Assembly (NCBI GenBank): GCA_016212855.1
Contig: JACRDP010000010.1
Location: 42,954 to 106,953, forward strand
Length of the DNA stretch: 64,000 bases
Direction: 5' to 3'
DNA from: Elusimicrobiota bacterium
GTDB taxonomy: Bacteria; Elusimicrobiota; Elusimicrobia; UBA1565; UBA9628
Shown here: positions 6,878-64,000 of the stretch, piece after piece
Position numbering within the stretch: the stretch's first letter is position 1
Layout of the letters: each line of letters begins with the position of its first letter
Translations under genes and position numbers: made by a program
The notes under the pieces: model-generated
What the model was told of the DNA's origin: nothing
Database searches by the model: none
Seen by the model: the letters and a program-made list of their open reading frames with translations, nothing else

Positions 6878-8373
6878 GCCGGCACGCCCTTCAGTACGTC
6901 GCGGCACGCGGCATGCACCTGGTCCACGGTCAGCAGGCGCATGCAGAGGAAGTGGCTCTCGGGGCAGGTTTTCGCGCCGTGCAGGCCGCACGGCCGGCAA
7001 GCCAGGTCTGCCTCGATGACGCGGTGGCCGGGGCCGTAGGGGAAAAAGCCGAGCTCGCGCGTGGTCGCGCCGAAGATCGCCACGACGGGCACGCCGGAAG
7101 CGGCGGCCAAGTGCATGGGTCCCGAGTCGTTGGTCACGAACACCGACATCCGCCCCATCAGGGACTTGAGGTCCTCGAGATCGGTTTTGCCGACAAGATC
7201 CAGGGCTTCGCAATCCTTGGCGATGCTCGCGCCCAAGGCTTTGTCGTCGGGGCCGCCGACGAGGACCGGGGTGAAGCCGTCGGCTTTCAGGCGCCGGCAC
7301 AGCTCGACGAAGCGCTCGGGCAGCCAGCGCTTGGTGGCCCAGGCCGAGCCGGGGTGCACGCCCGCGAGGCGTCCCGCTGGAAGCATCGCCGCCAGCTTCT
7401 CGCTCGACGGCGGGGGAGCGACGTAGCGCGACTCGCCGGCCGCCGGGGCCGCGCCGGCGCCGAGGGGCAAGGTCAGCGACAAATTGCGCTCAAGGTCGTG
7501 CATGAGCCAGGAGAAAGGGACCGTGTCGGTGAGCAGGAATGATCCGGCGCTCGAGTCGAAGCCGATCCGGCGGGGTATGGCCGCGAGCTTGGCGATCAAT
7601 GCCGAACGGAAGGAGCGGTGGGGAATCACGACGAGGTCGAAGCCGCGGGACTTCAGCTCGTCGGCGATTTTCCAGGGGCCGGTCGGACCGCCGTGAACGC
7701 CGCGCTTGTCGTCGATGAGAATTTCATCCACCCAAGGCGTGCCCCGGAACACGCCCGCGGTTTTCTCGAGCGTCAGGACGGTGAGCTTGGCGTCGGGCAG
7801 GATCTCCTTTAGGCGGCGCAGGAGGGGCAAGGTCAGCAGGCTGTCGCCGAGGAACGCCGATTGCATGATGAGCGCGTTGCGGGCCCCGCTCGCCTGTCCG
7901 GTGATCCCGTAGTCACCCGAGCTCATCGCGCTCGCCGAGCGCGGCACGCCCCAAGCGGCCAGCGCCTCGTGATAGCGGTCGACGGTGTGGCGCTGGAGCC
8001 CGGGCGTGGAAACCTTGAAGGCCACGAACAGGCGCCGGGCCAGGGCGTTCTTGCGGTAGGTCGCGGTATTGGGCACACGCGCCAAGGTCCGGATCAGGAA
8101 GGAGCGCAGGTTTCCGTGCAGGTCCAGCAGATGAGTAAAACCGCCGTTTTTGATGAATTTGACGGCGGCGAAGACGCCGTCGAAGGGCACGACCTCGTCC
8201 ACGCCCGGATGGCCCTTGAGAGCGGGGGCGAACTGGGGTTTGACGAGGACCGTGACCCGGCAGTCGGGCCAATGGGCTTTCAGGCTCTTATAAACCGGCC
8301 CGGTCAAGACGACGTCACCGAGGCTGGAAAGCCGTATAACGAGGATTTTGGGCGACAACGACGATTGTATCAT
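6874..8373 (-). CDS. glycosyltransferase family 9 with duplicated N-terminal GT9 half
   Basis: Two GT9 N-domain signatures (ILVIRLSSLGDVVLTGPVYKSLK and ALIMQSAFLGDSLLTLPLLRRLKE). One C-terminal GT9 domain (VFVTNDSGPMHLAAASGVPVVAIFG). Confidence 0.65.
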   Translation of the reverse strand: MIQSSLSPKILVIRLSSLGDVVLTGPVYKSLKAHWPDCRVTVLVKPQFAPALKGHPGVDEVVPFDGVFAAVKFIKNGGFTHLLDLHGNLRSFLIRTLARVPNTATYRKNALARRLFVAFKVSTPGLQRHTVDRYHEALAAWGVPRSASAMSSGDYGITGQASGARNALIMQSAFLGDSLLTLPLLRRLKEILPDAKLTVLTLEKTAGVFRGTPWVDEILIDDKRGVHGGPTGPWKIADELKSRGFDLVVIPHRSFRSALIAKLAAIPRRIGFDSSAGSFLLTDTVPFSWLMHDLERNLSLTLPLGAGAAPAAGESRYVAPPPSSEKLAAMLPAGRLAGVHPGSAWATKRWLPERFVELCRRLKADGFTPVLVGGPDDKALGASIAKDCEALDLVGKTDLEDLKSLMGRMSVFVTNDSGPMHLAAASGVPVVAIFGATTRELGFFPYGPGHRVIEADLACRPCGLHGAKTCPESHFLCMRLLTVDQVHAACRDVLKGVPA

Positions 8374-8398
8374 TTAGCCCGGCGGGGGGTCTTGGCGA

Positions 8399-8447
8399 GC
8401 CTCAAAAAGTTATCCACAAACTGGTCCCGGTACCAGTTTGTGGATAA
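8399..8447 (-). terminator. intrinsic terminator-like hairpin (18-bp perfect stem, T-tract on minus strand)
   Basis: AGTTATCCACAAACTGGT-loop-ACCAGTTTGTGGATAACT followed on the minus strand by TTTTTGAGG. Lies between the GT-C gene and the tandem GT9 gene. Stem is AT-rich relative to the genome. Confidence 0.45.
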
Positions 8448-8450
8448 CTT

Positions 8451-9743
8451 CTACCGGATTTGAGACGAAAGGCCTAGAACGAACTCGCGCATCGTCTTGG
8501 CGTGGGCCCGGCGGCCGTCGGCCTCGCCGGGACGGCCCGCGGCCTGCTCGGCGTCGGCCAGGCGCTCGAGGGCGAACGAGCTCAGCGGTGACGCCTCGAC
8601 GGCCTTGGTCCAGAGCGCGACATCCGAGGACCAGACGGGGAGTTGAAGGCGCGTGAGGACCGCCAGCGCTATGATGACGGCGCCGGCGACCGGGCGGAAT
8701 ATGTTCCGGTCGAGGCCGCGGCCGAGCATGCCGGCCGCCAACAAGGACAGCGGGATCGACGGGAGATAGGACCAGCGATCGGCCGCGGTCATGCGCCCGG
8801 ACTTGAACAGGCCGAGCGCGGGAAGGAGAAGGATCGCGTAGGCCAGGACGGCCAAGACGAGCCCGGGGGCGCGTCGGCGATAGACGACGAGCAGCGCGAC
8901 CGCGGTCAGCACGCTGGTCGCGGCGAGGCTGAAGGGAAGCGGCTCGAGGAGCACCGAGCGTTCGTACAGAGGGGCGAGACCCAGCGGCGCGAGCGTTTTC
9001 CAAGGATAGAATGCGAGGTTGTAGAACGACTGGGCGAGGCGGTGCGCGACGCCGAAGTCCGCGAACGAGACGGCCGCGCCGCTGCCGGCCTGAGCGACGA
9101 TATTGACCGCGAGCGCCACCAAGGCGAACGGGAGGTACTCGAGCTTCTCGCGCCAGCGCGGCTTTCCCTCGAGGCGGACGTCGAGCACGAGCCATACGGC
9201 GGGCAGAACGACGGCGAACACCTTGGCCGTCATCGCGAGCGCGGTCAGCAAAAGGGCCAGTCGCCGCCGTGAGGGGTTGTGCTTGCCGTCGACGTAGGTC
9301 AAGGCGGCGCAGATCGACAACAGGCCGCACAGGACGTCGCGGCGCTCGGTGATCCAGGCCACGGACTCGACGCGCAGAGGATGCAGCGCCCAGAACAGCG
9401 CGGCGAAAAGGGCGGGGACCTTCAGGCGGCGGGCGAGGAAGAAAAGCGCGACCGCGCCGGCGGCGTGGATGAGCACGTTCATCAGGTGATGGCCGAAGGG
9501 GCCGTCGCCCCAGATGAGGCGGTCGAGGGCGAAGGAGAGCCAGGTCAGAGGCTGCCAGTGGCCGAGCTTGGATCCGGAGAGCATGAACGCGAGGCCCGGG
9601 CGGTCGAAGCGAAGCAAGGGATTCGCGGCGACGTTCTGGAAATCGTCCCAGTTGAGGAACGAGAAGCTCAGGGCGGGCAGGAAGACGGCGACCACGAACG
9701 CGAACACGCCGCCGGCGAGTAGCCGGTCGTCGCGCTCAGACAC
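8451..9743 (-). CDS. polytopic membrane protein, GT-C fold-like (PMT/TMTC-type N-terminal domain)
   Basis: GTG start (VSERDD) overlaps the waaA stop by 8 nt. Multiple TM segments. NWDDFQNV...HHLMNVLIHAAGAV motif region resembles the N-domain of PMT/TMTC-type glycosyltransferases. Upstream portion of the called ORF lies inside waaA. Confidence 0.5.
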   Translation of the reverse strand: MSERDDRLLAGGVFAFVVAVFLPALSFSFLNWDDFQNVAANPLLRFDRPGLAFMLSGSKLGHWQPLTWLSFALDRLIWGDGPFGHHLMNVLIHAAGAVALFFLARRLKVPALFAALFWALHPLRVESVAWITERRDVLCGLLSICAALTYVDGKHNPSRRRLALLLTALAMTAKVFAVVLPAVWLVLDVRLEGKPRWREKLEYLPFALVALAVNIVAQAGSGAAVSFADFGVAHRLAQSFYNLAFYPWKTLAPLGLAPLYERSVLLEPLPFSLAATSVLTAVALLVVYRRRAPGLVLAVLAYAILLLPALGLFKSGRMTAADRWSYLPSIPLSLLAAGMLGRGLDRNIFRPVAGAVIIALAVLTRLQLPVWSSDVALWTKAVEASPLSSFALERLADAEQAAGRPGEADGRRAHAKTMREFVLGLSSQIR

Positions 9744-11028
9744 CGGCCCACTCCAGCGCGGCCACGGTCCGCGCCGTGGCGCCGCGCAGGCTTTCGGCGG
9801 TCGCGCGCGCGGCGGCGCCGGCCGCGCGGCCCGCGTCCTCGTCCCGGGCGAACTCCTCGAGGCGCGCGGCGAGCTCGGCCGCGTCGCGCACGAGGCGGCC
9901 GCCGCCGCCGTGGGCGGAGAGCAGTTGGGCCGGGCGCTCGATGTGCTCGGTGTGGGGGCCGAACAGGACGGGAACTCCCGCAAGCGCGGGCTCGAGCAGA
10001 TTGTGGCCGCCGACCGGAACGAGAGTTCCGCCGACGAAGGCGGCGCGCGCCAGCGCGTAAAAGCCGGGCAGCACTCCCATCTCGTCGAGGAGCAAAGCGT
10101 CTGCGCGCGCGGCGGAGCCGGCGCTCCAGCGGGCGACCTTGAGCCCGGCGCGGGACAGGAGGTCGGCGGCGTCGGCGGCGCGCTCCAGATGCCGCGGGGC
10201 GAGGACCAGTCGCAGTTCGGGAACCTTGCGGCGCGCGGCGAGGAAGGCGGCGAGGACCATCTCTTCCTCAAAAGGATGGGTGCTCCCGGTGACGAACAGC
10301 GGGGCGCCGCTCCAGCCGAGGGCGCGCGCCCGCTCGCGCGCCTCGGAGGCGGGGGCGTCCGCGAGGGCCTGATCGTATTTGGTGTTGCCGGCGACGACGA
10401 GGCGCTCACGCGGCAGGCCCAGCCCCACGAAGCGCTCGCCGTCCTCGGCGCTTTGCGCGGCGACCACGGTCAGGGCGCGCAGGGCCGGCGCCAGGAAGAA
10501 AGAGACGAGCCCGTAGCGCGAGCGGCTGCGCGGCGTCATCCGCGCGTTGATCAGGGCGGGCTTAAGTCCCGCGCGCGAAGCGAGAATCAAAGTCGTCGGC
10601 CACAGTTCGGTTTCAGTGAGGATAAGACGTTTGGGGGCTAAAGCCTCTACAAAACGGGAGACGCACGGCCACGCGTCGAGCGGCGCCAACTGCGCCCAGG
10701 CGACCCACGGCAGCGCGCGCGCCGCGTCGCGCCCCGAGCGCGTCGTCGTGGTGACGACGAGCTGCAGCGAGGTCTTCTCGTGCAGGGCCTTGAGCAGCGG
10801 AGCCAGGCCGGCGACCTCTCCGGCCGAGGCGGCGTGAAACCACCACACGTCGCGCCCGCGCAGCTGCTCGAGCGCCGCCGGGCGGATCGCGCCGAAGCGT
10901 TCGGGAAGCTCCTCGGAAAGGCCGCCGAGTCGGCCGCGCTTGGAGGAGAACACGAAGGAGAGAATCACGCCCAGCGCCGCGAGCGGAGCGAACATGGTTT
11001 CGACGACGAGGAGGAAAAGTGCTCTCAT
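9736..11028 (-). CDS. waaA: 3-deoxy-D-manno-octulosonic acid (Kdo) transferase
   Basis: WFHAASAGEV...ELWPT...FVTGSTHPFEE motifs of KdtA/WaaA. Confidence 0.85.
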   Translation of the reverse strand: MRALFLLVVETMFAPLAALGVILSFVFSSKRGRLGGLSEELPERFGAIRPAALEQLRGRDVWWFHAASAGEVAGLAPLLKALHEKTSLQLVVTTTTRSGRDAARALPWVAWAQLAPLDAWPCVSRFVEALAPKRLILTETELWPTTLILASRAGLKPALINARMTPRSRSRYGLVSFFLAPALRALTVVAAQSAEDGERFVGLGLPRERLVVAGNTKYDQALADAPASEARERARALGWSGAPLFVTGSTHPFEEEMVLAAFLAARRKVPELRLVLAPRHLERAADAADLLSRAGLKVARWSAGSAARADALLLDEMGVLPGFYALARAAFVGGTLVPVGGHNLLEPALAGVPVLFGPHTEHIERPAQLLSAHGGGGRLVRDAAELAARLEEFARDEDAGRAAGAAARATAESLRGATARTVAALEWAGV

Positions 11029-11654
11029 GAGACCAGGCGGTCGGCTTCGTCGGTGAGGCGGTCCATCGCCGCCTTGAGTTCGGCCGCCTTGGACACGAGG
11101 TCGTCGCTCTCGGACACGCGGATGGGCTCGCCGTAGATCACGACGGAGCGGCCGAAGGGGAGAGGCACCTGGAACCGGTCCCAGGCCTTGGCGATCTCGA
11201 TTTTGTTGGACAGGGCGTTGGCGATGGGGATGATGGGCATGCCGGCGAGCTGGGCCACGCGAACGGCGCCTTCCTTGACCTCGCGCGCCGGGCCCCGCGG
11301 GCCGTCGGGGGTGATGCCCACGTCGCGGCCGGCGCGCAGGATCTCGACCATCTCGCGCGCCGCGACCGCGCCGCCGCGGGAGGAGGACCCGCGCACGGCG
11401 CCGATGCGCGAGAGCTCCATCGTGCGCGCGATCATCTCGCCGTCTTTGGACTTGCTGACGAGCACCGCGGCCTCGGCGTCGCGGTGCGACCAGGTGAAGA
11501 ACACCTGACGCTGGTGCCAGAAGGCGTAGATGAAGCGCTGTCCGTCCGCGTGTACTTTTTCGGGGATGTGGGCGCGCAGGACCATTTGGCGCGTGGTCCA
11601 GCCGACGAAGCTCACGTAGGCGTAGACGAGGTAGGGGACGAGCTTGCGGAGCAC
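11025..11654 (-). CDS. DUF374 / lysophospholipid acyltransferase-like protein
   Basis: FWHQRQ...GITPDGPRGP motif region, commonly adjacent to kdtA. Start (GTG at 11654, or a later ATG) is uncertain. Confidence 0.5.
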   Translation of the reverse strand: MLRKLVPYLVYAYVSFVGWTTRQMVLRAHIPEKVHADGQRFIYAFWHQRQVFFTWSHRDAEAAVLVSKSKDGEMIARTMELSRIGAVRGSSSRGGAVAAREMVEILRAGRDVGITPDGPRGPAREVKEGAVRVAQLAGMPIIPIANALSNKIEIAKAWDRFQVPLPFGRSVVIYGEPIRVSESDDLVSKAAELKAAMDRLTDEADRLVS

Positions 11655-40290: not shown

Positions 40291-41368
40291 CGCGCTTCTC
40301 GCGCTGCTGCTGCTCGCGGCGCCGACTGTTCTGCGCGCACAGGATCTGGGCTTCGACGTGCATTTCGGCTCCCGCCACGGCGCCGAATTCACCGCCCGCT
40401 CGAGCTCCTGGTGGAGCTCGAAAGTTCTCTTCGACAGCGGCTTCAGCGATCCGGTTCCGGGCGAATGGGACGTGCTGCTGATCCAAGGCGTGCTGCCCGA
40501 TCCGAACGTCCGCTTTCAGGCCGCGCGCTCCGGCGGCTCATGGGTCGACCTGGACGTGACGCGCGGCCCGGACGGCCGCTTCTGGGCGAAGGGGAAATTC
40601 CCGCGCAAGGCCGGGCCGGTGCGCCTGCGCGCGCTCGACGCGGGCGTCGCCGGCGAGAGCGCGGTGTCGATCTACGGCGCGGAGGCGTTCGCGGACGCGC
40701 CCGAGACCCCCGCGCCGTCGCTGCCGCCGTCGCGCGGCCCCGTCGATCCGGGCGCGAAGCCCCCGCTCGTGCACGGCCGGGCCGAGTGGCGCGCCGTCCC
40801 GCCGGTGAACCCGTACTCGCCCGATCCGATGCCGTGGCGCGTCACCTTGCATCACACGGACGGGCGCTACACGACGAACCTCGCGGAGAGTCTCGAAGAG
40901 ACTCGCTTCATCCAGGATTTCCATCAGCACGGCCGGGGCTGGAGCGACATCGGCTATCACTTTCTCGTCGATCCGCTGGGCAACGTCCTCGAGGGACGCC
41001 CGCTCGAAACGCTCGGCGCGCACACGCTCAGCAACAACGAGGGCAACGTCGGCATCGTCCTGCTCGGCACGTACCACGCGCCGAAGAACGACCAGCCGAC
41101 CCCCGCCCAGCTCGCGGCCGTCGCGTCGATCGGGCGCTTCCTCGTCAAGCGCTTCGGCATCGATCCCGCCTCGCTCAAGGGTCACCGCGACTACAAGCAG
41201 ACCGACTGCCCCGGCGACCTGGCCTATCCCAAGCTCCCTGAACTTCGCGCGGCGTTCGGGGCGACTGCGCCCGTGCCCTCCGCGCGCAAGCCGCGGCGAG
41301 TGCGTGTTTCACCCGTCGCGACGGCCCCGGATTGGGACGGCGGGCAATCCAGGCCCTTAGGCCTATAG
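40280..41368 (+). CDS. N-acetylmuramoyl-L-alanine amidase (Amidase_2/PGRP domain), secreted
   Basis: Signal peptide. HHTDG...IGYHFLV...GHRD...C zinc-amidase motifs. Confidence 0.75.
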   Translation: MRADALLALLLLAAPTVLRAQDLGFDVHFGSRHGAEFTARSSSWWSSKVLFDSGFSDPVPGEWDVLLIQGVLPDPNVRFQAARSGGSWVDLDVTRGPDGRFWAKGKFPRKAGPVRLRALDAGVAGESAVSIYGAEAFADAPETPAPSLPPSRGPVDPGAKPPLVHGRAEWRAVPPVNPYSPDPMPWRVTLHHTDGRYTTNLAESLEETRFIQDFHQHGRGWSDIGYHFLVDPLGNVLEGRPLETLGAHTLSNNEGNVGIVLLGTYHAPKNDQPTPAQLAAVASIGRFLVKRFGIDPASLKGHRDYKQTDCPGDLAYPKLPELRAAFGATAPVPSARKPRRVRVSPVATAPDWDGGQSRPLGL

Positions 41369-41534
41369 ACGTATGGTGCCGGAGGCACTGGCAACTGCTC
41401 TGCGCCGCCGTTAAACTCAACAGAGCATCTGTAGCTCGGGGAATTGGCCCCGGGGCATCCACGACCCGACCGAAATCGGGTGAGACCAGAGGTCTGCGGC
41501 GCGTTTACGCCGAGGCTTCTGGCTTTTTATTTTT

Positions 41535-42278
41535 ATGGGAACGAACATTATTAAATCTATGAGAATCAGCGGAACACGCGTCGGTGGATCAATGTGCATC
41601 GTCTTAATCGTAGCTTCTCTTGGCATGGCTGTCGCGCGCGCCGGAGACGTGAGCCGCGATGAGGCGTTCGCACAGGCAAAAAATGACGACGAACAAGCTC
41701 TTGTCGATCGCCCGTTGTACGTCACTCCCGCCCCGAAAAAATTCAGGCCCCGGGGCAAAGGCGAGCTCATCGTGATGAAGTTGACGCTGGAAAAGACGAC
41801 AATTCGTCGCGGAACTCCTATCCGCTGCCGATTAGAGATCGCTAACGTCGGGTCGGTCCCGTATGTGTTCATCGAGCACTCGCAAAGTTTTTTCAAAACC
41901 GGCCGTTTGCCATCGGATGCTCTCAATATGAGCGTCAAAGGTCCGCGAGGGAAAGAAAGCTTCGCTCGCTCGAAGTTCCCCGGGAATTCGGATATCGCTG
42001 CAGAAATTCATCTTCCGGCTGGACTTACTGAGGCCGAGAAAGCGGCCATGGTCGAAAGCATGAAACGCGATAAACGCTCGACGACGACGCTTTTCCAACG
42101 CCTTGCCCCGGGAGAAACACTGCATACCCGCGGCGATACGGCTCCAAATGGTTTTCGCACATTCGACATCGGCTCTTGGCTCAATTCGGATGGGGATTAT
42201 GAGCTGTACATGGTCCTCGATGCGTTTTCCAAATCCGAAAGAAAATCCAATCGCGTACACCTGAAGGTGGTTCCATGA
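41535..42278 (+). CDS. hypothetical secreted protein
   Basis: Signal peptide (MCIVLIVASLGMAVARA). No recognised domain. Confidence 0.5.
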   Translation: MGTNIIKSMRISGTRVGGSMCIVLIVASLGMAVARAGDVSRDEAFAQAKNDDEQALVDRPLYVTPAPKKFRPRGKGELIVMKLTLEKTTIRRGTPIRCRLEIANVGSVPYVFIEHSQSFFKTGRLPSDALNMSVKGPRGKESFARSKFPGNSDIAAEIHLPAGLTEAEKAAMVESMKRDKRSTTTLFQRLAPGETLHTRGDTAPNGFRTFDIGSWLNSDGDYELYMVLDAFSKSERKSNRVHLKVVP

Positions 42279-43861
42279 AGCGGCTGCTTCTTCTGGCCCT
42301 TATGGCATGGGTGGTTCCGGCCATCGCTTATGCGGGGCCGTGTCCAAGCTCGGATGGGTCGCCTTGCTTGCCTGATGATGGAACACAGAAAGATTTGCTG
42401 AGAAGGATCCGAGAAGTGCAGGCCCTGAACAATGAGATTCGCTCTGCCGCCATCGTTTGGCAAAATTCTCGCGCCGGAACGGATAGAGCGGGGGAGCTCT
42501 CCAAGTATGAGGCGTACGCGCAAGCGAAAAACACATTCGATGACAAATCGGTAAAACTCATCGATCAAATTCAGAAAGCCTACAATGTCGCGCCTACGCA
42601 CACATCCGGATTAACTCGAAAACCCTCGGGGACAAACCGCACTATGGCTTGGATGGATGGCCTCCCAGCGCAATGGAAACCTCGGTTCAGCAACAATGAT
42701 GACGATTATCGTGCGATTCAGACCAAGAGCGGGACTCATTACGCATCCGTGAATACGGCGGCTTATGCCGGCGCAACGCTTCCCAATGGCGATGTCGTGA
42801 TCGGCGCGTCATTGCTGTCAGAGGCATTGAAGGATCAGAATCCCGGCATCATCGCTCAAGCGATATATCATGAGGGGCGCCATTTCGCCGATTTGGTGAC
42901 TACCGGCTGGCGGTCGATTGAGCAGGGCGAAGTTGCTGCCTATACAGCGGTAGCGGCGCATGATGATACCTTTAAGCTGTCAGAGGGCTGGCTCCAACTC
43001 AATGCAGCCAATCTCTTAGCCAATCAGGCTGCGCTGGATGCCGGCTCGGAACGCGCGTATGCCATCACCGCCAAAGATGAGAAATTGATCAAGGGCATCA
43101 TCGACCAAGAAAAAGCTAGGCAGGGAGATTTCGCTAAATATTATGCGATTCTCAAGGCGGAGGTGACGAAGACCACCGCTGAGCGCGAGCATGATGAACT
43201 CCTGAAAAAAACAATCGCCTCAATAGCTCTCCGATCATGCGCCAATCCCGGAAGCGTGACACAAGATGAGCTGAACGCTCTCGATAAGCCTTACCGGAAA
43301 GATTTCTACCGAGGAGAGTTCCCCAAGGGACTGGAGGGGGCAGACGGCACCGGGTATTGTACCGAACCGTATTTTTATTTGGGCGACATGGCGGGGGCGA
43401 ACCCTGACGCGTTGCGCCTCAAATCGTTGTCAACGCCCAGGCAGCCTGCAATCTCTCCACCTCTGCCTGAGCAGCATGTTCCGGCCGTGCCGGTGGATCT
43501 CGCTGCGCTGACGATCTCGAACATGCGCCGCTTGGCGATCCTCGCATGCGATTATCCTGGAAGGCTAACTTACGCAGATACAACCGGGGCGATCAAGACG
43601 GCGTATGTTCCGCTTCCAGCCGCGCAGAGTGCAGGATCGGATCTAACCGGATGTGCGCGTTTTGTCTATGATGCTCTCGTTTTCTTTGTTCCTCAGGGCT
43701 ACCGGGGGGCGCTGACGCCTGACTGGCTTCGCGAACGAGCCCTGGCCTACAGTCCGCCAACTCCTCCGCGAGGCGAACCTGGCGGGGGACGCGGCAGCCC
43801 TCCTAGAAAGGATCCTTGCTACTGGGACCCTGGGTGCAACTGCCGTGTCTGCGAGGATTGA
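42275..43861 (+). CDS. hypothetical secreted protein with HExxH-like motif (HEGRH) and Cys-rich C-terminus
   Basis: Signal peptide MKRLLLLALMAWVVPAIAYA. AIYHEGRHFADL. C-terminal DPCYWDPGCNCRVCED. ATGA overlap with the upstream gene. Confidence 0.5.
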   Translation: MKRLLLLALMAWVVPAIAYAGPCPSSDGSPCLPDDGTQKDLLRRIREVQALNNEIRSAAIVWQNSRAGTDRAGELSKYEAYAQAKNTFDDKSVKLIDQIQKAYNVAPTHTSGLTRKPSGTNRTMAWMDGLPAQWKPRFSNNDDDYRAIQTKSGTHYASVNTAAYAGATLPNGDVVIGASLLSEALKDQNPGIIAQAIYHEGRHFADLVTTGWRSIEQGEVAAYTAVAAHDDTFKLSEGWLQLNAANLLANQAALDAGSERAYAITAKDEKLIKGIIDQEKARQGDFAKYYAILKAEVTKTTAEREHDELLKKTIASIALRSCANPGSVTQDELNALDKPYRKDFYRGEFPKGLEGADGTGYCTEPYFYLGDMAGANPDALRLKSLSTPRQPAISPPLPEQHVPAVPVDLAALTISNMRRLAILACDYPGRLTYADTTGAIKTAYVPLPAAQSAGSDLTGCARFVYDALVFFVPQGYRGALTPDWLRERALAYSPPTPPRGEPGGGRGSPPRKDPCYWDPGCNCRVCED

Positions 43862-52895: not shown

Positions 52896-55349
52896 ATGGA
52901 TGAATGGGACGACCGCGCCCTGCGCGAGATCAACAGCCTCGACGCCGCCCGTTTGGCGATCCGCGGCGCGTTGGCCACCATCCGCGACCTGCAGGACCAG
53001 AACGCCGCGCTGAAGGGGCAGGCGTCGGACGAAAGCGCCAAGCGCAAGCTTCTCGAGAGCCGGATTTCAGAGATGGACGCGCGTCTGGCGCAATGGCAGG
53101 AGCAGGCCGCGAAATGGGAGAAGGACAGCGCGGCGCGCGAAGCGCACCTGGCGCGCTGGAAGACCGAGGCGCGCGCGGAGGTGCGCGCCGAGGAGCGCGC
53201 GCGCGTCGACGCCGACCGCGTGCGCACCGAGGAGACCCTGGCCCGCCTGCGCGCCGATCTCGCCGCGATGGGCAAGGCCCACCAAAGCCGCGAGGGCGCT
53301 TGGCTCGAGCTCAAGCGCGGCCTCGAGGCGCGCGACGCCGAGATCGCCTCCCTGCGCGCCGATAAGCTCGACATCGTCGCCAAGGTCAAGCGCGACGCCG
53401 AGCAGCTCGAGATCCTGCGCGAGGCGCGCGACCGCGAGATGGGCCAGGCCGCGCACCTGCGCGAGCTCGAGATCGCCGACAATGACCGCGAGATCGCGGC
53501 GCTCAAGGCCGAGCTCGAGGAAAACAAGATGGCCCTGGCCGCCGTGGCCCAGGACCGGGAGCTCTCGCTCAAGGCGCGCGAGGAGGAGATGGTCAAGGCC
53601 TTCGCGCTCAAGGAGGCCGATCTCGTCCGCCGCTATCAGGCGCGCGAGGCCGAACTCCAGGCGCGCTGGTCCGAGCTCGAGACCGGTCTGTGGGCCAAGA
53701 CCAAGGAATCGCGCGCCAAGCTCGACGCGTCCGTGCAGCAGCAGTTCGAGGAGCGCGCGCGCCAGATCGCCGATCGCGCGAAAGAAGTCGAGGACCTGCT
53801 CGCCCGCCGCTCGCGCGAGCTGGCCGACGACCACGAGAAGCGCTGCGCCGAGGCCGAGGCGCATTACGCGGCCGACGAGCGCCGGCTGCACGCGTCCTGG
53901 GCCGAGAAGGAACAGCGCCTGCTCGCCCGCATCGAGGCGGAGCAGACGCAGGAGCACCTGACCCTCCAGGCCGCCTGGGCCGACCGCCACAAGATTCTCG
54001 AGGCCGAGCACGCCGAGCGCCTGCGCCAGGTCCAGGCCAAGATCGAGGAGCTCGAAGCGCAGGGCCGCCGCGACCACGCCCGCATGCTGGAAGAAGCCGC
54101 GGTCAAGGACGCCGAGCGCGTCCGCCAGCAGGACGACTTCGTCGCGCGCAAGGGAGCGGAGCTCGACAAGGAGCGCGCCGAGCGCCTCACCGAGCTGGCC
54201 CAGCGCGCTCGCGATCTTGAGGACGAAGCCAAGCGCCGCGAGGAGACCCGCCAGAACGCCTACCTTTCGCGCACGGCCGCGCTCGAAGCGGAGCATGAAC
54301 TGCGCCGCGGCCGCCTGCTCGAGGAGCACCGCAAGACCGTCGAGGCGGAGAAGTTCTCTCTGTCCGAGCAGTACGACCAGCGCCAGCGCGCGCTCGACGA
54401 GGCGCACCGGGCGAAAATCGCCGAGACCGAGCGGGCCGCCCGCGCGCTCGCCGAACAGCACCAGGCCTGGAAGGAGTCCCTGCGCGAGGAGTTCCTGCGC
54501 AAGGAGAAGGACCTCGACTCGCGCTGGGCCGTGCGCGAGGCCGAGTTCGTGGCGCGTTACGAGACCGCGCTGGAAGACCAGCGCAGGACGTTTACCGGAG
54601 AGGCGATCGAGGGCCGCTCGCGCCTCGAGGCGCAGCGGCGCAAGATCGAGGACGAGTCGCTCACTCGCGAGAAGCGGCAGCACGTCGAAACCCAGCGCCG
54701 CGAAGCCGAGGCGCTACTCAAGCACTCGCAGGAATTGTCCGCGCGCCAAGCCGCCCACGACGCACGGCTCGCCGAACTGCGCCTCGCGCACGACGAGAAT
54801 CTGCGCATGGTCCGCGAGCGGGCCTTCGAGGACCTCGCGCGCGAGCGCGCCGGGCTGCAGAAGGACCTGGCCGGCCTGCAGGAGCGCCTCGCCGCCGCGC
54901 AGGCCGAGAGCGACCGCGGGCGCCTGGCCGACGCGACGCACGCGAAGTCGCTCGAGACGCGCGTCGCCGCGCTCGAATCGGAGCGCCGGGCTCTCGATCA
55001 GCAACTGGCCTCGCTGAATAGAGAGTGCGAGGCGCTGCGCGCCGCCGTCGCCGAGCGCGACCGCCTGCGCGACGTCGAGCGCGCGCGCCTGGCCGAGGAG
55101 GCGAAGCTCGGCGCCGCGGCCGAATTCGCGCGCATCCTCAATGAAACGGAGCGCGACCGCGCCCAGGGGCTCGAGGCGCGTCGTGTCGAGCTCGAGAAGA
55201 CCCTATTCTCGCGCCGCCGCGCGCTCGAGGAGGCGCTCGCCGAGCGCGGCCGCGCCCTCGACATCAAAGAGCAGCGCATCGAGGAAGAGCGAGCGCGGCT
55301 CGATGAAGCGAGGGCGCAGGGCTCCCCGCCCGATAAGCCCTCCGCCTGA
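52896..55349 (+). CDS. large coiled-coil protein (A/E/R/L-rich, about 818 aa)
   Basis: GGAGG 8 nt upstream of the second ATG (MDEWDD). The sequence is almost entirely heptad-like charged repeats (AREAEL..., ELEA...). No enzymatic motif. Confidence 0.6.
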   Translation: MDEWDDRALREINSLDAARLAIRGALATIRDLQDQNAALKGQASDESAKRKLLESRISEMDARLAQWQEQAAKWEKDSAAREAHLARWKTEARAEVRAEERARVDADRVRTEETLARLRADLAAMGKAHQSREGAWLELKRGLEARDAEIASLRADKLDIVAKVKRDAEQLEILREARDREMGQAAHLRELEIADNDREIAALKAELEENKMALAAVAQDRELSLKAREEEMVKAFALKEADLVRRYQAREAELQARWSELETGLWAKTKESRAKLDASVQQQFEERARQIADRAKEVEDLLARRSRELADDHEKRCAEAEAHYAADERRLHASWAEKEQRLLARIEAEQTQEHLTLQAAWADRHKILEAEHAERLRQVQAKIEELEAQGRRDHARMLEEAAVKDAERVRQQDDFVARKGAELDKERAERLTELAQRARDLEDEAKRREETRQNAYLSRTAALEAEHELRRGRLLEEHRKTVEAEKFSLSEQYDQRQRALDEAHRAKIAETERAARALAEQHQAWKESLREEFLRKEKDLDSRWAVREAEFVARYETALEDQRRTFTGEAIEGRSRLEAQRRKIEDESLTREKRQHVETQRREAEALLKHSQELSARQAAHDARLAELRLAHDENLRMVRERAFEDLARERAGLQKDLAGLQERLAAAQAESDRGRLADATHAKSLETRVAALESERRALDQQLASLNRECEALRAAVAERDRLRDVERARLAEEAKLGAAAEFARILNETERDRAQGLEARRVELEKTLFSRRRALEEALAERGRALDIKEQRIEEERARLDEARAQGSPPDKPSA

Positions 55350-55550
55350 CGCGAGTTATCCCCAACACTTTCAGCGTTGGGAAACGCTGGGGAGAACGCC
55401 CGTGAACTTGGAAAGAGACCTCCATGTTCCCGGATTTTTTTGCCAGGTCTGAATATCTCGCCAGCTCTGACGACGTCACATGAAGAATATCCGGCGTCTC
55501 GTGCCCGCAAAATCCCGCGTTTTTTAAAAAAATATCCTTAATCTGCAAGG

Positions 55551-55582
55551 CTTATTCACTGTCGGCGCCGACAGTGAATAAG
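55551..55582. promoter_or_regulatory. perfect 32-bp palindrome (candidate operator) in AT-rich 400-bp intergenic region
   Basis: CTTATTCACTGTCGGC|GCCGACAGTGAATAAG with CTGT-N8-ACAG core. Flanked by the imperfect inverted repeats AAAATCCCGCGTTTT / AAACGCGGGGTTTTA. Confidence 0.5.
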
Positions 55583-55888
55583 GATTAATTTCCCAGCATT
55601 ATTTTTCAATAAACGCGGGGTTTTACGCGAGTACAACTTCGTCGAAGCGGAGGAAATTGGAACGGACATGCTCCATGTCTCTGTGGATCATCCGTCAAAT
55701 TCCAGAACAACTATCCTGCGGATAGCGCCGTCTCGGCGCAAGCAGAACTCGCACCGGTGCGAGTTTTGAAAAGTCCGGGGACCTGGAGGGAAAGAGACCT
55801 CTTGACGGATGAAGACGAGGGGGCTATACTGCGCCCGTCGGCAGGAATGCCGATCACACCGAGACGAACTTTGAGAGGACTCGACACC

Positions 55889-60286: not shown

Positions 60287-60315
60287 ATGACAGATGCGGC
60301 CCGCTTTGCTATACT
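60287..60315 (+). promoter_or_regulatory. putative promoter of tRNA-Asn
   Basis: ATGACA - 17 nt - TATACT ending about 8 nt before the tRNA 5' end. Confidence 0.4.
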
Positions 60316-60323
60316 GTTCGCGA

Positions 60324-60398
60324 TCCGGGCTAGCTCAACGGTGGAGCAGGCCGCTGTTAACGGCAAGGTTCTAGGTTCGAGTCCTAGGCCCGGAGCCA
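60324..60398 (+). tRNA. tRNA-Asn (anticodon GUU)
   Basis: Hand-folded. Acceptor TCCGGGC/GCCCGGA. D-arm GCTC-AACGGTG-GAGC. Anticodon loop CTGTTAA. T-arm CTAGG-TTCGAGT-CCTAG. Encoded CCA. Confidence 0.85.
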
Positions 60399-61979
60399 AT
60401 TCAGACGCTCGTCAAAACTGACCTTGTCGCCTTCAACCTGGAATCCCAGGTCCGGAAGAGGGCGCAGGGTCAGTTTCATTTTGGACTTCTGCGTGTCGTA
60501 GACGACCTCGCCCACGAGTAGCGCCAGCAGTTCCTTCTGCTGAAGCGGCGTCAGCTTCGTGTAGAAGCCCGAGAAACTTTCCAAGTTGCGCCGGATGATC
60601 TCGGCGTCGATCTGCCGCGACTCAAGCTCGACGACTTCGCTGTCGAGCCGCTGGACCTGCTTCTCCAACTCCTCACGGCGCTCCTGCACTTGGCCGAGCT
60701 TGTCCATGAGCGCACGGTACTGCGGCACGGCTGGGCCCTGCGCGGCGAGGATGTTCGTGATGTTGCCGACCTCGGCTTCCTGCCTCCCGATCTCCGCGAT
60801 GAGGGCCACGCGCTTTTTCTGCTTGGCCGGCAGCTCCGTGCCCGTCATCTGCCGGGCTCTCTCCACGACTTCGTTGACGACCTCCTTCTGCTTGCCGAGG
60901 AACGCGATACGGTCCAAGACCAACCGCTCAAGCTCGCGCGCGGGCGCGCTCTTGGTCGGGCAGGCCGATTTGTCGAGCTTACTGACCGAGACGCACTTGT
61001 AGTAGAAATACTTACGGCCCTTCGAGTAGGCGAAGTTCGGCGTCATGGCGTGACCGCACGCGCCGCAGCGCACGAGCCCGCGGAGCATGAAGTTGTGCTT
61101 GTCCTGGTTCGGCGAGGTGTTCATCTGGCCGTTGGCCTTGAGCATGCGGCTCACTCGCTCGAAGATCGCGGGCTCGACGATGCCTTTATGCTCGCCCTCG
61201 TGAACATCGCCCTTGTGACTGATCTTACCGATATAGACCGGGTTGCGGAGAACGTAGTCCAAGCTCCCCTTGTTGAAGCGTCGTCCGCCGTGAATGTTGC
61301 CCTTGCGCGTCGTCCACTTCTTCATTCTGAAGCCCTGCTTATTGAGAGAAATCGCCGCCTTGCTGAGGGACTTCGTCTTGAGATAAGTCTCGTAGAGGAG
61401 CCGGACCTGCTTCGCCTCCGCCGCGTTAATGACGAGCTTTTTGGTTTCCTCATCGGCGTCATAGCCAAGAACAGGCGGGCCACCGGACCACTTTCCTTTG
61501 CGCGCCATCGCCGCGCGCTTGTCGCGCGTTCTCTCGCTGATCAACTCGCGTTCGAACTGCGAGAAATCCACGAGGATCGAGCGCATGAGCCGGCCGACGG
61601 ACGAGCCGGTGTCGATGGGCTGAGTGACCGAGACGTAGACTATCCCGTGCTTGTCGAAGATGTCGAGGACGTGCAGGAAGTCCTTCGTGTTGCGACTCAA
61701 GCGGTCGTACTTGTAGGTGACGACGGCCTGGAACTTGCCTTGCCGCGCATCCGCCAGAAGATGCTTGAGCCCCGGCCGGTCCATGTTGCCGCCCGTGTAG
61801 CCCGGGTCGTTGTATTCGACCGGAAACACGCGCCAGCCCTCGGCCCCGCGGCTCTTGATGAAGGCCTCGCAATACTCGCGCTGCGAGTCGAGCGAAGTGA
61901 AGTCGCCGCCCAGGTTCTCGTCCGTGGACTTGCGCGTGTAGACCGCGACCCACTTCACCGGCTTTTTATCGTTGGCCAT
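60384..61979 (-). CDS. large serine recombinase (resolvase catalytic domain + recombinase domain + zinc ribbon)
   Basis: VAVYTRKSTD...catalytic Ser region (YDRLSRN), central recombinase domain, and CGACGH...C zinc ribbon. 3' end overlaps the last approx. 15 nt of tRNA-Asn. Confidence 0.85.
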   Translation of the reverse strand: MANDKKPVKWVAVYTRKSTDENLGGDFTSLDSQREYCEAFIKSRGAEGWRVFPVEYNDPGYTGGNMDRPGLKHLLADARQGKFQAVVTYKYDRLSRNTKDFLHVLDIFDKHGIVYVSVTQPIDTGSSVGRLMRSILVDFSQFERELISERTRDKRAAMARKGKWSGGPPVLGYDADEETKKLVINAAEAKQVRLLYETYLKTKSLSKAAISLNKQGFRMKKWTTRKGNIHGGRRFNKGSLDYVLRNPVYIGKISHKGDVHEGEHKGIVEPAIFERVSRMLKANGQMNTSPNQDKHNFMLRGLVRCGACGHAMTPNFAYSKGRKYFYYKCVSVSKLDKSACPTKSAPARELERLVLDRIAFLGKQKEVVNEVVERARQMTGTELPAKQKKRVALIAEIGRQEAEVGNITNILAAQGPAVPQYRALMDKLGQVQERREELEKQVQRLDSEVVELESRQIDAEIIRRNLESFSGFYTKLTPLQQKELLALLVGEVVYDTQKSKMKLTLRPLPDLGFQVEGDKVSFDERLNWLRA

Positions 61980-62280
61980 GAAAAGATTCTATCATTATCG
62001 AATGTCATTTTAACTTGTCAAAACCGGCCTAGTCTTCGGCGCGACGGGAGAATCCGGCATCGACATGACCGCCAACAATTCGACGATCCGATCCCACCGC
62101 TCCTCCGGCGTCAATTCGTCCGGGTCCATGAAATGATGGCCCGCCCGCAGGCGCGGCTTGCGGCGCTTCTTCTCCGACGGCTCTTGCGACGGCGTGCTCT
62201 GTATTTGGCTCTTTATTTTTCTCCTGTTTCGACCGGGCCCTGTCCGGTCTTCGTTTTAGGGGGCACCATTCCCCCGGTTG

Positions 62281-63822
62281 TTACTTGAGTGAAACCGGCA
62301 CCCGCCTGATGCCGCACTCTTGAAGCGAAGCTCCCATGTCGAGAGTGACCGCCAGCCGCCGCGTCGCGGCCGGCGCTCGAAAAGTCATGAGCGTGGACGT
62401 CCATGTTTCGCGCCCGAAGACGCTCCCGTCTTTGACCGGCCACCGGCCAAGCTCTCGCCCTTTGATGTTCTCGATGCTGATCGTCTTGAGGACGCAGCCG
62501 CCCCAATACTCGCTCACGCGCTCCAGTTCGACGCTCAGCCGGAAGTCCTCGCCTCGGACCTGGACGACGGGGAGCGAGAATCGCAGGTCTCCCATGCTCC
62601 AGTAGACGGCGTTCGGCTTAAGATTGCGCCAGCGCGCGGGCCCGCCAGATGCCGCTGAGGTAGGCGGCGACAACGGCGCGAAGCGCCAAAACAGGAAGGC
62701 GGCCGCGGTCAACGCGACGGCGATCTCTAGGCCGGCTTTGAACCAGTCCCAATCCGGGCCATACCGAAAGCTCTCAAGGCGCTCTATAAAACCAGGCCGT
62801 GAAGGTTCCCATTTCACGGGCGGGACTTCGCGCGGGGGCACGTGCTCGGTGCGCGCGGGAGCGTCCGCTGGCAGGCGCACTGGATAAAAAGTGACTGGTG
62901 CGACGGGTGCCTCTGGCTCTGGTTCGGGCTGGCGCGGAAGCAAGGTCGGCTTGGCCGCGTCGATCGTGTAGGCCTGCCCCTCCGGGTCCGTCAAATAGGC
63001 CTTGCCGTCCTTGGCCGCCAGGAAGTCATCAAGCAGGATGAAAAAGTGGCGCTGCGGGGCAAGCCAGTAGTCGCGCCGGTTGGCTTCGCGCTGAACGGCT
63101 TTCAGCGTGGTCTGGTCGCCGCATAGCCACCAGACCTGATCGAGGTCCTTGCGGTGGCCCAGTTGCTCCATCGACTCATCGAGCTTGCCTTGGTTCTTGA
63201 GGGTCAGCTCGACCTCGAGGCCGACGCGCTCGGCCTTCTCATGGTCCGGGACCTTGTACCAGAACTCGCCGTCGCAGAGCTTGTCGGTCGCCTTCTTGCG
63301 CCGCTTCCAGAGCCGGCTTTCCGGCAGGAATTCTTTGACGTTCGGATGCTTGGCCAGCGTGATCCCGGCCTTGGCGCAGGCCAGCCGGTGGCGGAAAATG
63401 AAGGTGCTGTAGCGGTCTAAATTGAAGCGCAGGCCGACCTTCAGCCGGTGGAATCTCCCCAGCACGCGGTAGCCTTTGTGCGTCAGGTAATGCCCTTTGC
63501 GCGGGCTCATGTGCGTGTCGAAGTCCGCGACGATCCCCTGCCGCCGCAGCTCGTTCATCACGCCGTACGCCCAGGTCTTGTTGCCGAAGATGAAGTGGAT
63601 CTCGGCCATCGTCAGGAACCCGTACTCGGCCAGCCGCTCCATCAAGTCCAGCATCTTCTCCGTCAGGGCTTTCGGATCGCCTTTTCCCTTGACCTGCTTT
63701 TCATCCTGTTTTTCCTCTATCAGTTCTTCACCTCCGTTCCCTGTCTTTTCCTTCTCTTTTGTCTCCAATTTTTCTCCTTCTGTTTTTTTACTCTTTTTCA
63801 CTACCATCCCCATCATCCCTCT
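62281..63822 (-). CDS. replication-relaxation (Replic_Relax)-like protein with K/E-rich N-terminus and C-terminal TM domain
   Basis: wHTH-like LDLMERLAEYGFLTMAEIHFIFG...ELRRQGIV. ATG MMGMVV follows AAGGAG. May be two fused or adjacent genes. Confidence 0.4.
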   Translation of the reverse strand, partial: RGMMGMVVKKSKKTEGEKLETKEKEKTGNGGEELIEEKQDEKQVKGKGDPKALTEKMLDLMERLAEYGFLTMAEIHFIFGNKTWAYGVMNELRRQGIVADFDTHMSPRKGHYLTHKGYRVLGRFHRLKVGLRFNLDRYSTFIFRHRLACAKAGITLAKHPNVKEFLPESRLWKRRKKATDKLCDGEFWYKVPDHEKAERVGLEVELTLKNQGKLDESMEQLGHRKDLDQVWWLCGDQTTLKAVQREANRRDYWLAPQRHFFILLDDFLAAKDGKAYLTDPEGQAYTIDAAKPTLLPRQPEPEPEAPVAPVTFYPVRLPADAPARTEHVPPREVPPVKWEPSRPGFIERLESFRYGPDWDWFKAGLEIAVALTAAAFLFWRFAPLSPPTSAASGGPARWRNLKPNAVYWSMGDLRFSLPVVQVRGEDFRLSVELERVSEYWGGCVLKTISIENIKGRELGRWPVKDGSVFGRETWTSTLMTFRAPAATRRLAVTLDMGASLQECGIRRVPVSLK

Positions 63823-63871
63823 CCTACTCCTTTTCGAGTCCTTTACAACCAACAGATTTATCTGATGGTTG

Positions 63872-63919
63872 GGGGAGGGTGGTCAGGAAGCACGCCAGTG
63901 CTTCCTGACCACCCTCCCC
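63872..63919. terminator. perfect 21-bp stem hairpin
   Basis: GGGAGGGTGGTCAGGAAGCAC-GCCA-GTGCTTCCTGACCACCCTCCC. Confidence 0.5.
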
Positions 63920-64000
63920 GGCGAGAAAAGGGCCTATATCGCGGGGATGATGGGGATGGCTTGTTTTATCGCGTCTCGACTTGTACCAGTGACCCCGCAC

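Follow-up and report, generated by a model that had tools for sequence, protein, structure and literature searches.

A large serine recombinase gene reading into tRNA-Asn marks the probable end of a small integrative element in an Elusimicrobiota genome

The last 3.6 kb of a 64,000-nucleotide stretch from an Elusimicrobiota bacterium (contig JACRDP010000010.1 of assembly GCA_016212855.1; the whole stretch is called the window below) raises the question of why a large serine recombinase (LSR) gene should end inside a tRNA gene on the opposite strand, and whether the DNA behind it is mobile. We consider it probable (about 0.8) that this segment is the recombinase-proximal end of a small integrative element located at the 3′ terminus of tRNA-Asn, and it is best described as a small integrative element that is driven by an LSR and has an accessory module of plasmid-like character. 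An earlier reading made from the letters alone (the sequence-only reading) had proposed an integrated element with an LSR at this tRNA, and the proposal is borne out by an empty site and alternative occupants in related hosts, by relatives at tRNA-Gln, and by the intact catalytic domain of the recombinase.

At the junction, ARAGORN predicts tRNA-Asn(GTT) (Rfam RF00005, 57.9 bits), and the longest open reading frame (ORF) opposite to it encodes the 531-aa LSR. The 3′ end of the LSR gene reads GAG CGT CTG AAT TGG CTC CGG GCC TAG, of which the last five codons are antisense to the 3′ end of tRNA-Asn: TGG complements the tRNA CCA, the two bases that follow, CT, pair with G73 and A72, and TAG (60384-60386), the stop codon, lies in the T-stem. 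The overlap thus amounts to 15 nt of ORF (W L R A stop), as had been noticed from the letters. Over 73 nt the tRNA is 100% identical to its counterpart at the LSR-less site L182/L183 (L-numbers denote retrieved loci; relatives were located via the LSR and the neighboring pilT gene). The claimed drop in base composition is present but only modest, from 66.8% GC up to the tRNA to 60.5% over 60399-64000, with 12% of host 300-nt windows being equally low; positions 63700-63850 have 41% GC and code for a K/E-rich N-terminus predicted to be disordered.

Judged by its sequence, the protein is a bona fide LSR, having both the catalytic domain and the recombinase/zinc-ribbon region. The three Pfam families that the sequence-only reading had named for checking all match (Resolvase, PF00239, E 3e-35; Recombinase, PF07508, E 2e-13; Zn_ribbon_recom, PF13408, E 4e-13), the best PHROG match is the PHROG 95 integrase (E 1.6e-117), and the CcrB/XisF models match below threshold. 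In alignment with the catalytic domain of TP901-1 integrase (3bvp, E 1.6e-22), AVYTRKST lies over AIYTRVST, placing S18 at the catalytic Ser, and R16, S18, D92, R93, R96, Cys305, Cys308, Cys329 and Cys340 are invariant across 31 aligned homologs. The protein also aligns with the A118 integrase C-terminal structures (4kis and 6dnw) and with the structure of SPbeta SprA, the latter alignment extending through residue 501. For the coiled-coil motif that LSRs carry inserted in the zinc-ribbon domain, where it controls directionality, the protein offers, besides the SprA alignment, only a weak Tropomyosin-type match at residues 422-455. It thereby shares with TP901-1 Int, A118 Int, SprA, Bxb1 Int and Ccr the resolvase domain with nucleophilic Ser, the recombinase domain and the four-Cys zinc ribbon. 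Among the LSR homologs, a subset of ~700 aa (P0050, P0054, P0057, P0059, P0063, P0068, P0069) has a C-terminal extension past the usual end; two of these carry PF17762, and the subset lacks the tRNA-antisense tails described below.

In related Elusimicrobia the pilT/tRNA-Asn locus was found in four states, namely empty, occupied by this LSR type, occupied by LSR-less islands, or occupied by an unrelated LSR. This polymorphism of the locus indicates that the DNA is mobile. The empty site (L203/L204) belongs to the host with the most similar PilT (97% identical) and lacks a recombinase; a native intrinsic terminator stands between core-type genes (cation ATPase, epimerase, DUF1810) and tRNA-Asn, with the junction ...GAGAG|TGGCTCCGGG tRNA-Asn. 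The same locus reads ...GCATCTGAGAG|TGGCTCCGGGCC, which is tRNA-Asn with an encoded CCA. The comparison with genomes lacking the insertion, as the sequence-only reading had suggested, is thus available from a truly empty site. This LSR type occupies the site in the window, L001/2, L087, L088 and L098, the L001 LSR being 94% identical to that of the window at the same tRNA-Asn, while L182-L186 have other occupants. Three differently occupied hosts (L001, L184/185 and L186) are 93-95% identical to each other over a 3-kb flank. Presence/absence polymorphism at one chromosomal site, which distinguishes an integrative element, is thus observed directly.

The other occupants differ in content. L184/185 has a 3.66-kb LSR-less island at tRNA-Asn with RelE/HTH, PRiA4_ORF3 and a HATPase_c_4 gene or remnant, and the native terminator flank is displaced to the far end of the island, where it is 84% identical to L203 over 70 nt. 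At the same tRNA-Asn, L186 (7209-9893) has an LSR of 542 aa that is unrelated (26% identity) and is accompanied by a Replic_Relax-like gene of its own; this LSR likewise reads antisense into the tRNA, in another frame (...NGSGSRTRT*). Some details of these loci are recorded here in their own right. In the L184 island (6092-9893, equivalent to L185 3180-6981), the HATPase_c_4 gene is intact in L185, both junctions share TGCTC, and the tRNA has no CCA; the side opposite the displaced flank has a new intrinsic terminator next to 18 nt that match the 3′ end of the LSR gene without a difference. In L182, a 64-nt direct repeat (3143-3206 and 9805-9868, 89% identical), consisting of the tRNA-Asn 3′ flank and 5 nt of tRNA, brackets 6.6 kb without a recombinase gene.

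Close relatives of the recombinase also occur at a second target. LSRs 80-94% identical in amino acid sequence and ~90% identical in DNA lie at tRNA-Gln(CTG) in other hosts (L007, L089, L090, L093, L094 and L096), with element-side sequence identical to that of the window up to ...CTGAATTGGCT. The LSR DNA of the window is ~90% identical to that of L001, L088 or L090, whereas the host flanks, including the very conserved pilT, are only 79-82% identical.

More broadly, targeting of tRNA 3′ ends is a property of the whole clade of LSRs with at least 50% identity. In 15 non-redundant DNA loci from this clade the ORF ends inside, and antisense to, a tRNA, which is tRNA-Asn(GTT) in the window, L001, L087, L088, L098 and L008, tRNA-Gln(CTG) in L007, L089, L090, L093, L094, L096 and L103, and tRNA-Gln(TTG) in L102 (L002, a contig of its own from a different sample, has the L001 junction sequence; L188 and L189 are duplicates of L090). 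The end of the tRNA always lies two codons past a conserved F-D/Y-E/D-R motif, and the Trp codon is absent where the tRNA gene has no CCA (L102, L103). In ~72 of the 101 best database homologs the protein ends in a tRNA-antisense tail (xL[RP]x, ..DSN[LQP].., ..R[TI]RT or WGG), examples such as WLRD, ..DSNL.. and ..RTRT being what the acceptor and T-arm encode when read antisense. The elements cease to be homologous precisely where the tRNA ends. In the sister clade (~40% identical), a tRNA was found beside the LSR stop in none of 155 loci (77 genome and 78 viral).

The relative L090 (equal to L188 and L189; LSR 94% identical) can be delimited as a 5.8-kb element with two predicted ends. Its order is host MFS efflux operon, 131-nt spacer, AbiEii/AbiEi, Replic_Relax-like gene, small ORF, LSR and tRNA-Gln. 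The host TetR-OEP-MFP-MFS efflux operon ends 131 nt ahead of the first gene of the element, and at this boundary the GC fraction falls from 0.70-0.75 to 0.52-0.67. Within the spacer, at ...GGACATCCAATGACAATTCAGCGTCC, lies the one further copy of CAATTCAG to be found in 15.4 kb (expectation 0.27 per locus), inverted relative to CTGAATTG beside the tRNA. A search for the empty tRNA-Gln site via the flanking MFS gene found all 13 contigs with an identical protein occupied, and a genome with an 84% homolog of that protein was not syntenic.

Comparison of junctions narrows the point of exchange. The empty attachment site (attB, L203) and the left junction in the window (attL) agree from the first base of TGG and differ ahead of it; the attL sites at tRNA-Asn and tRNA-Gln are identical through TGGCT and diverge after it, at tRNA position 71. 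The exchange should therefore fall within TGGCT, corresponding to tRNA A72-A76 (Table 1). The sequence-only reading had seen in the overlap the classic footprint of a regenerated tRNA 3′ end; that picture belongs to tyrosine integrases. Here the junction lies in the last 2-5 nt of the tRNA, and no long tRNA repeat is accordingly to be expected at the far end of the element. The right junction (attR) of L090 is compatible only with TG, the sole bases common to both junctions, giving a reconstructed element site (attP) of ...GAGCGTCTGAAT-TG-ACAATTCAGCG... and an attB of ...CATCCAA-TG-GCTGCGGGAC. From this one relative, the 2-bp crossover is most likely the terminal CA of CCA. The last 12 LSR codons before the junction are AT-rich within a GC-rich gene. 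Only 0.6% of 12-codon windows diverge as little at the nucleotide level and only 3.8% show so few synonymous differences, which fits a DNA-level constraint, such as an att half-site, superimposed on the coding sequence.

A crossover elsewhere by the same mechanism is possible, though we hold it the less likely. If the exchange occurred at GC (G73-C74), the attP would be a perfect palindrome, CTGAATTG-GC-CAATTCAG, and two LSR-less lineages (L182, L184) do read TGCTCC without CCA; such a site would need a C-to-A change in the L090 attR, and the empty L203 encodes CCA, which removes the argument for a CCA supplied by the element. That variant, prompted by the CCA-less L182/L184, was dropped as the favorite for the latter reason. 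If the exchange instead occurred at AG, 13 nt further into the gene, it would lie at the center of the palindrome GACG-AG-CGTC and the last eight codons would be host DNA; in its favor, GACGAGCGTC is an internal palindrome and L184 has TTTTGACGAGCGTCTGAA beside an apparently native terminator. For this, two different tRNA genes would have to be trailed by the same 12 nt although the rest of the intergenic DNA in their hosts is unrelated, and the AG site conflicts with the comparison of L001 and L184, whose hosts are 93.5% identical.

Several points weigh against integration at the tRNA terminus as set out here. The window ends inside the element, as the sequence-only reading had recognized, leaving only attL in view, with attR and the cargo beyond position 64000, and no excised or circular attP form has been observed directly. 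The sole available attR, that of L090, depends on an inverted match of 8 nt where the boundary is predicted, and the attP reconstructed from it is asymmetric about TG. Dyad symmetry sought at every possible center in attL, attB and L003 was nowhere above chance, and on the host side the Asn and Gln sites have dissimilar B′ flanks. Finally, the LSRs of L003 and L187 are followed by a tRNA-Gln-like end of 9-11 nt with no tRNA, for which the proposed integration does not account. In L003 (88% LSR, 11576-11610) and L187 (93% LSR, 3583-3620) the sequence is TGGCTGCCC(A/GA), followed by unrelated DNA, and the GAAC motif of these arms is 6 nt further out than in real tRNAs. They could be tRNA-mimicking attP-like arms, secondary sites, or tRNA fragments parted by later insertions. 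L003 may be a simple attP form, since the +6-nt GAAC shift in L003 and L187 recalls the known attP/attB spacing rule, but the arms of both differ from the L090 attR arm.

Searches for further junctions returned little. The exact junction pattern had one match in viral contigs, a chance match with neither LSR nor tRNA there. When the L003 right arm and the inverted P′ arm were sought in other loci, a match at a boundary was found only in L090/L188/L189; one-mismatch matches to the P′ or L003 arm in L093, L089, L008 and L103 lie in coding or cargo DNA at chance frequency and were discarded.

With the exchange placed in the terminal AGCCA of the tRNA, the following course of integration can be proposed. 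The LSR would catalyze insertion through an attP that overlaps the 3′ end of its own gene, one half-site being the DNA that encodes the conserved C-terminal peptide VSFDERLN. Crossover within AGCCA would leave the tRNA intact, while the trailer and terminator native to it would come to lie at the element's far end. The LSR ORF would then cross the junction and take its stop codon from the T-stem of the host tRNA, integration adding WLRA to the window LSR and up to ~25 residues in relatives. In a putative excised form of L090, the ORF would end AAT TGA (...ERLN, 527 aa in window numbering), with the crossover dinucleotide contained in TGA; integration would turn this TGA into TGG, and the ORF would run to the first stop in the antisense tRNA.

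The occupied site in the window has tRNA-Asn without the native intrinsic terminator that is present at the empty L203, and window positions 60399-61790 (+) contain no terminator-like site for ~1.4 kb after the tRNA. Read-through from the tRNA would therefore be antisense to the LSR gene. It is conceivable, if rather improbable, that an attP placed across the LSR stop acts as an integration-state switch, the host-encoded tail and/or antisense read-through from the strong tRNA promoter tuning recombinase level or directionality, depending on whether the element is integrated and at which tRNA. If true, such a stop-codon switch would be the serine-recombinase counterpart of the integration-dependent regulation known from tyrosine systems.

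A fixed and immobile remnant, in which vertical inheritance keeps the LSR next to the tRNA and the overlap records a past event, is an unlikely account of the locus. Decay does occur at this hotspot, where L184/185 keeps 18 nt of the LSR 3′ end and the LSR of L097 is frameshifted, and the occupancy of 13/13 contigs with the L090-type host gene, with no excised form seen, points the same way. The window LSR is nevertheless full length with all invariant catalytic and zinc-ribbon residues kept, the small ORF upstream of it is under purifying selection, the LSR shows stronger conservation than the host flanks and is found, according to host, at either of two tRNAs, and an empty site exists (L203).

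Less likely again is a prophage with the LSR as phage integrase and virion genes in cargo past 64000. The best PHROG match of the LSR is indeed a phage integrase family, and L102 and L103 (51-52% identity) lie on contigs classed as viral by IMG/VR. Neither phage nor conjugation genes were seen, however; virion structural and packaging genes are absent from the visible 3.6 kb and from the delimited 5.8-kb relative, and the other two proteins have no PHROG match. The partner gene conserved alongside the LSR resembles those of plasmids (Replic_Relax/MobC) rather than those of phages, the closest delimited relative, which is also the smallest, is only 5.8 kb, and the cargo of relatives consists of an AbiEii/AbiEi toxin-antitoxin pair (L090) or of type I restriction-modification, SIR2-like and HATPase_c_4 genes (L003, L093). 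As for a chance by-product, an ordinary gene ending inside a neighboring tRNA, short antisense overlaps are common between convergent genes, but recurrence of the overlap at three tRNA species across 15 non-redundant loci, each time two codons from the FDER motif, absence from 155 sister-clade loci, and homology between elements that stops at the tRNA end leave this explanation with practically no standing.

The part of the element that lies in the window comprises a conserved module of LSR, small basic protein, and winged-helix Replic_Relax-like protein preceded by a structured leader. The small ORF is directly upstream of the LSR in 13/13 relatives checked, with dN/dS of ~0.10 over the 25 codons after its ATG and ~0.08 over the 15 codons before it (EKKRRKPRLR), and low values on both sides of the ATG indicate that the protein is real and probably longer than the 39 aa given in the sequence-only reading, which had pointed to this ORF as lying where recombination directionality factors (RDFs) are often found. 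The frame remains open over 62130-62252 without an ATG, GTG or TTG upstream of its ATG, which suggests a non-canonical start or another mode of expression. The protein has no match in Pfam, PHROG or NCBIfam, and its AlphaFold model is a single helix, offering no searchable fold; it is a candidate accessory, regulatory or directionality factor. A consensus promoter scan of the region returned 5 sites against 0.6 expected. The promoter-like site ahead of the LSR overlaps the 3′ end of the small ORF, its -35 box coinciding with the conserved V-L-T codons, and leaves a leader of ~8 nt before the ATG (61979) with no obvious ribosome-binding site, as in a near-leaderless mRNA.

The next protein has the K/E-rich N-terminus that the sequence-only reading had described, while its assignment to Replic_Relax (PF13814) falls short of the gathering cut-off of 25.3 bits (22.6 bits for the whole protein, 23.9 bits for the N-terminal part). 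Only 7 of 50 members of its family reach E 1e-3 with this model (best 7e-6), and the NCBIfam MobC match is also sub-threshold. The protein may therefore act like, or be distantly related to, PF13814 proteins, and we do not file it as a member. Its family is very small, with 77 representatives among 1.84 billion proteins. The second, alpha/beta domain has a conserved H..D..E.E...K pattern (H143, D182, E201, K207), and Foldseek links this domain weakly to the PD-(D/E)XK-type proteins YaeQ, SfsA and PaqCI. The C-terminal half past the predicted membrane segment (window 62281-62860) is not conserved, though the N-terminal halves are 86-89% identical; it is possibly surface-exposed.

A structured region of ~160 nt covers the start of this gene. 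At its core is a perfect hairpin, with a stem of 22 bp (63872-63893/63898-63919) where the sequence-only reading had counted 21, and an outer 16-bp pairing (63804-63819 with 63944-63959) covers the start codons; two smaller helices complete the structure. In an alignment of six elements (the window, L090 7900-8060, L007, L094, L097 and L003 7990-8160), the 57 pairs are 93% paired and 15 of them show compensatory double changes, a degree of pairing matched by 0/500 shuffles and compared with 41-57% in slid controls. Rfam returns no family for the hairpin or the region as a whole, only chance microRNA matches, and with 13 G.U against 7 A.C cells the structure may be one of RNA or of DNA. L003 repeats the leader region at the contig end with 72% identity. 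Upstream of the structured region, direct repeats of the iteron-like motif CACTGGTACA occur in 2-3 copies in relatives (L090 ~7830-7930), the window having room for only one before it ends. The winged-helix and nuclease-like protein together with iterons and structured leader is a candidate replication or mobilization module, and the element in the window may be replicative or mobilizable.

Replication origins are often preceded by iteron-like and inverted repeats. The element resembles plasmid Replic_Relax/MobC systems in having such repeats upstream of the gene and in the weak similarity over the winged-helix and the following domain. It differs from them in a partner protein that is below both curated cut-offs, twice as long, and equipped with a membrane segment and a variable C-terminal half.

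Serine integrases are preferred tools for the insertion of large DNA, and protein-coding genes are considered their main natural targets. Like other LSRs, from phages and from integrative elements, the present one would use att junctions that are short and simple and have no long direct repeat. Unlike TP901-1 integrase and similar enzymes, which target a protein-coding gene, it targets a tRNA 3′ terminus, and its predicted attP half-site lies inside its own last codons with the stop supplied across the junction, making the C-terminal tail of the LSR dependent on the integration state and on the host tRNA. In SSV1-type archaeal integrases the int gene is split on integration, and some mycobacteriophages have integration-dependent immunity; these are tyrosine recombinases whose gene is substantially split or truncated, and the change is functional. 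The likeness is one of principle only, with the attachment site inside the coding sequence of the element and the product changed by integration, whereas in the window LSR integration would change only the stop codon and a few C-terminal residues.

That serine integrases are uncommon at tRNA sites, as the sequence-only reading had stated, agrees with the passages on tRNA targets in two earlier papers. The TIGER survey of Mageeney et al. (2020) lists 14 of 297 serine-integrase islands at t(m)RNA genes (PMC7192596), while Ghinet et al. (2011) inferred tRNA-Leu as the site of eight mycobacterial AICE serine recombinases and cited phiRSM, with a small serine recombinase at the 3′ end of tRNA-Ser, as the only experimental case (PMC3218068). 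In these passages the pairing is called rare and in need of experimental proof (PMC7192596; PMC3218068). The large LSR survey of Durrant et al. makes no mention of tRNA (PMC10083194), and a review of mobilizable elements has site-specific serine recombinases integrating within genes (PMC5704250). Like the AICEs and TIGER islands so described, the present system combines an LSR-type integrase with a tRNA target recognized computationally; it differs from them in belonging to another phylum (Elusimicrobiota and neighbors) and in a whole clade directed to the CCA ends of tRNA-Asn and tRNA-Gln. With the phiRSM integrase, as portrayed there, it shares serine chemistry and tRNA 3′-end integration, the phiRSM case being experimental; that enzyme is a small resolvase-type protein of a filamentous phage, without recombinase and zinc-ribbon domains. 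A serine recombinase at a tRNA is thus rare but precedented, and what is added here is a clade-wide CCA-end target and an ORF across its own att site. No description of an LSR ORF spanning its own attachment site was found in the literature, and a clade-wide CCA-end junction crossed by the LSR ORF is not described in the passages on tRNA targets of PMC3218068 and PMC7192596.

A clade directed to the conserved tRNA-Asn and tRNA-Gln 3′ ends offers a testable set of enzymes with natural landing sites in many genomes. The superposition of attachment site, LSR C-terminus and stop codon is a compact architecture in which integration-state-dependent control is directly testable. The locus also reveals a hotspot for mobile elements, and small defense or addiction elements, in the uncultivated Elusimicrobiota, where such elements are largely uncharted.

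Table 1. Positions of features at the recombinase-proximal end of the element, in window coordinates
Feature	Position	Strand	Basis or remark
Promoter-like site for tRNA-Asn, ATGACA-17-TATACT, extended -10	60287..60315	+	Consensus scan 10/12, ends 9 nt before tRNA; consensus match only
tRNA-Asn(GTT), host target gene; T-arm and acceptor end = B arm of attL	60324..60398	+	ARAGORN, Rfam RF00005; 3′ portion matches empty site L203/L204
LSR, 531 aa; last four codons and stop (WLRA*) = antisense tRNA-Asn	60384..61979	-	Pfam, PHROG 95, structure alignments
Predicted crossover interval AGCCA (antisense TGGCT; tRNA positions 72-76); likeliest central dinucleotide CA at 60397-60398	60394..60398		Inferred from junction comparisons
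Predicted element-side half-site (P′ arm), ATTCAGACGCTCGTCAAAACTGACC, inside last LSR codons	60399..60423		(Nearly) identical in all 80-96% identity relatives, whichever tRNA
Promoter-like site TTGACA-16-GATAAT, just upstream of LSR ATG	61994..62021	-	Consensus scan 11/12; consensus match only
Small conserved protein, 39 aa from ATG, frame open and conserved back to ~62252; EKKRRKPRLR basic N-terminal stretch	62010..62129	-	dN/dS, position
Replic_Relax/MobC-like protein: disordered K/E-rich N-terminus, winged-helix, alpha/beta domain	62281..63852	-	Probable start ATG at 63816
Conserved structured region over start of Replic_Relax-like gene, ~160 nt	63801..63962	-	Inverted repeats, covariation in 6 elements
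Iteron-like motif CACTGGTACA, one copy	63982..63991	-	Alignment of regions upstream of Replic_Relax-like gene, 8 loci

Two further patches of low GC lie elsewhere in the window, which has 67% GC. Positions 41350-43300 (~53%) contain two ORFs of 247 and 528 aa without a Pfam match, and positions 55300-55650 (46-52%) lie between ORFs of 819 and 156 aa, both likewise without a Pfam match.

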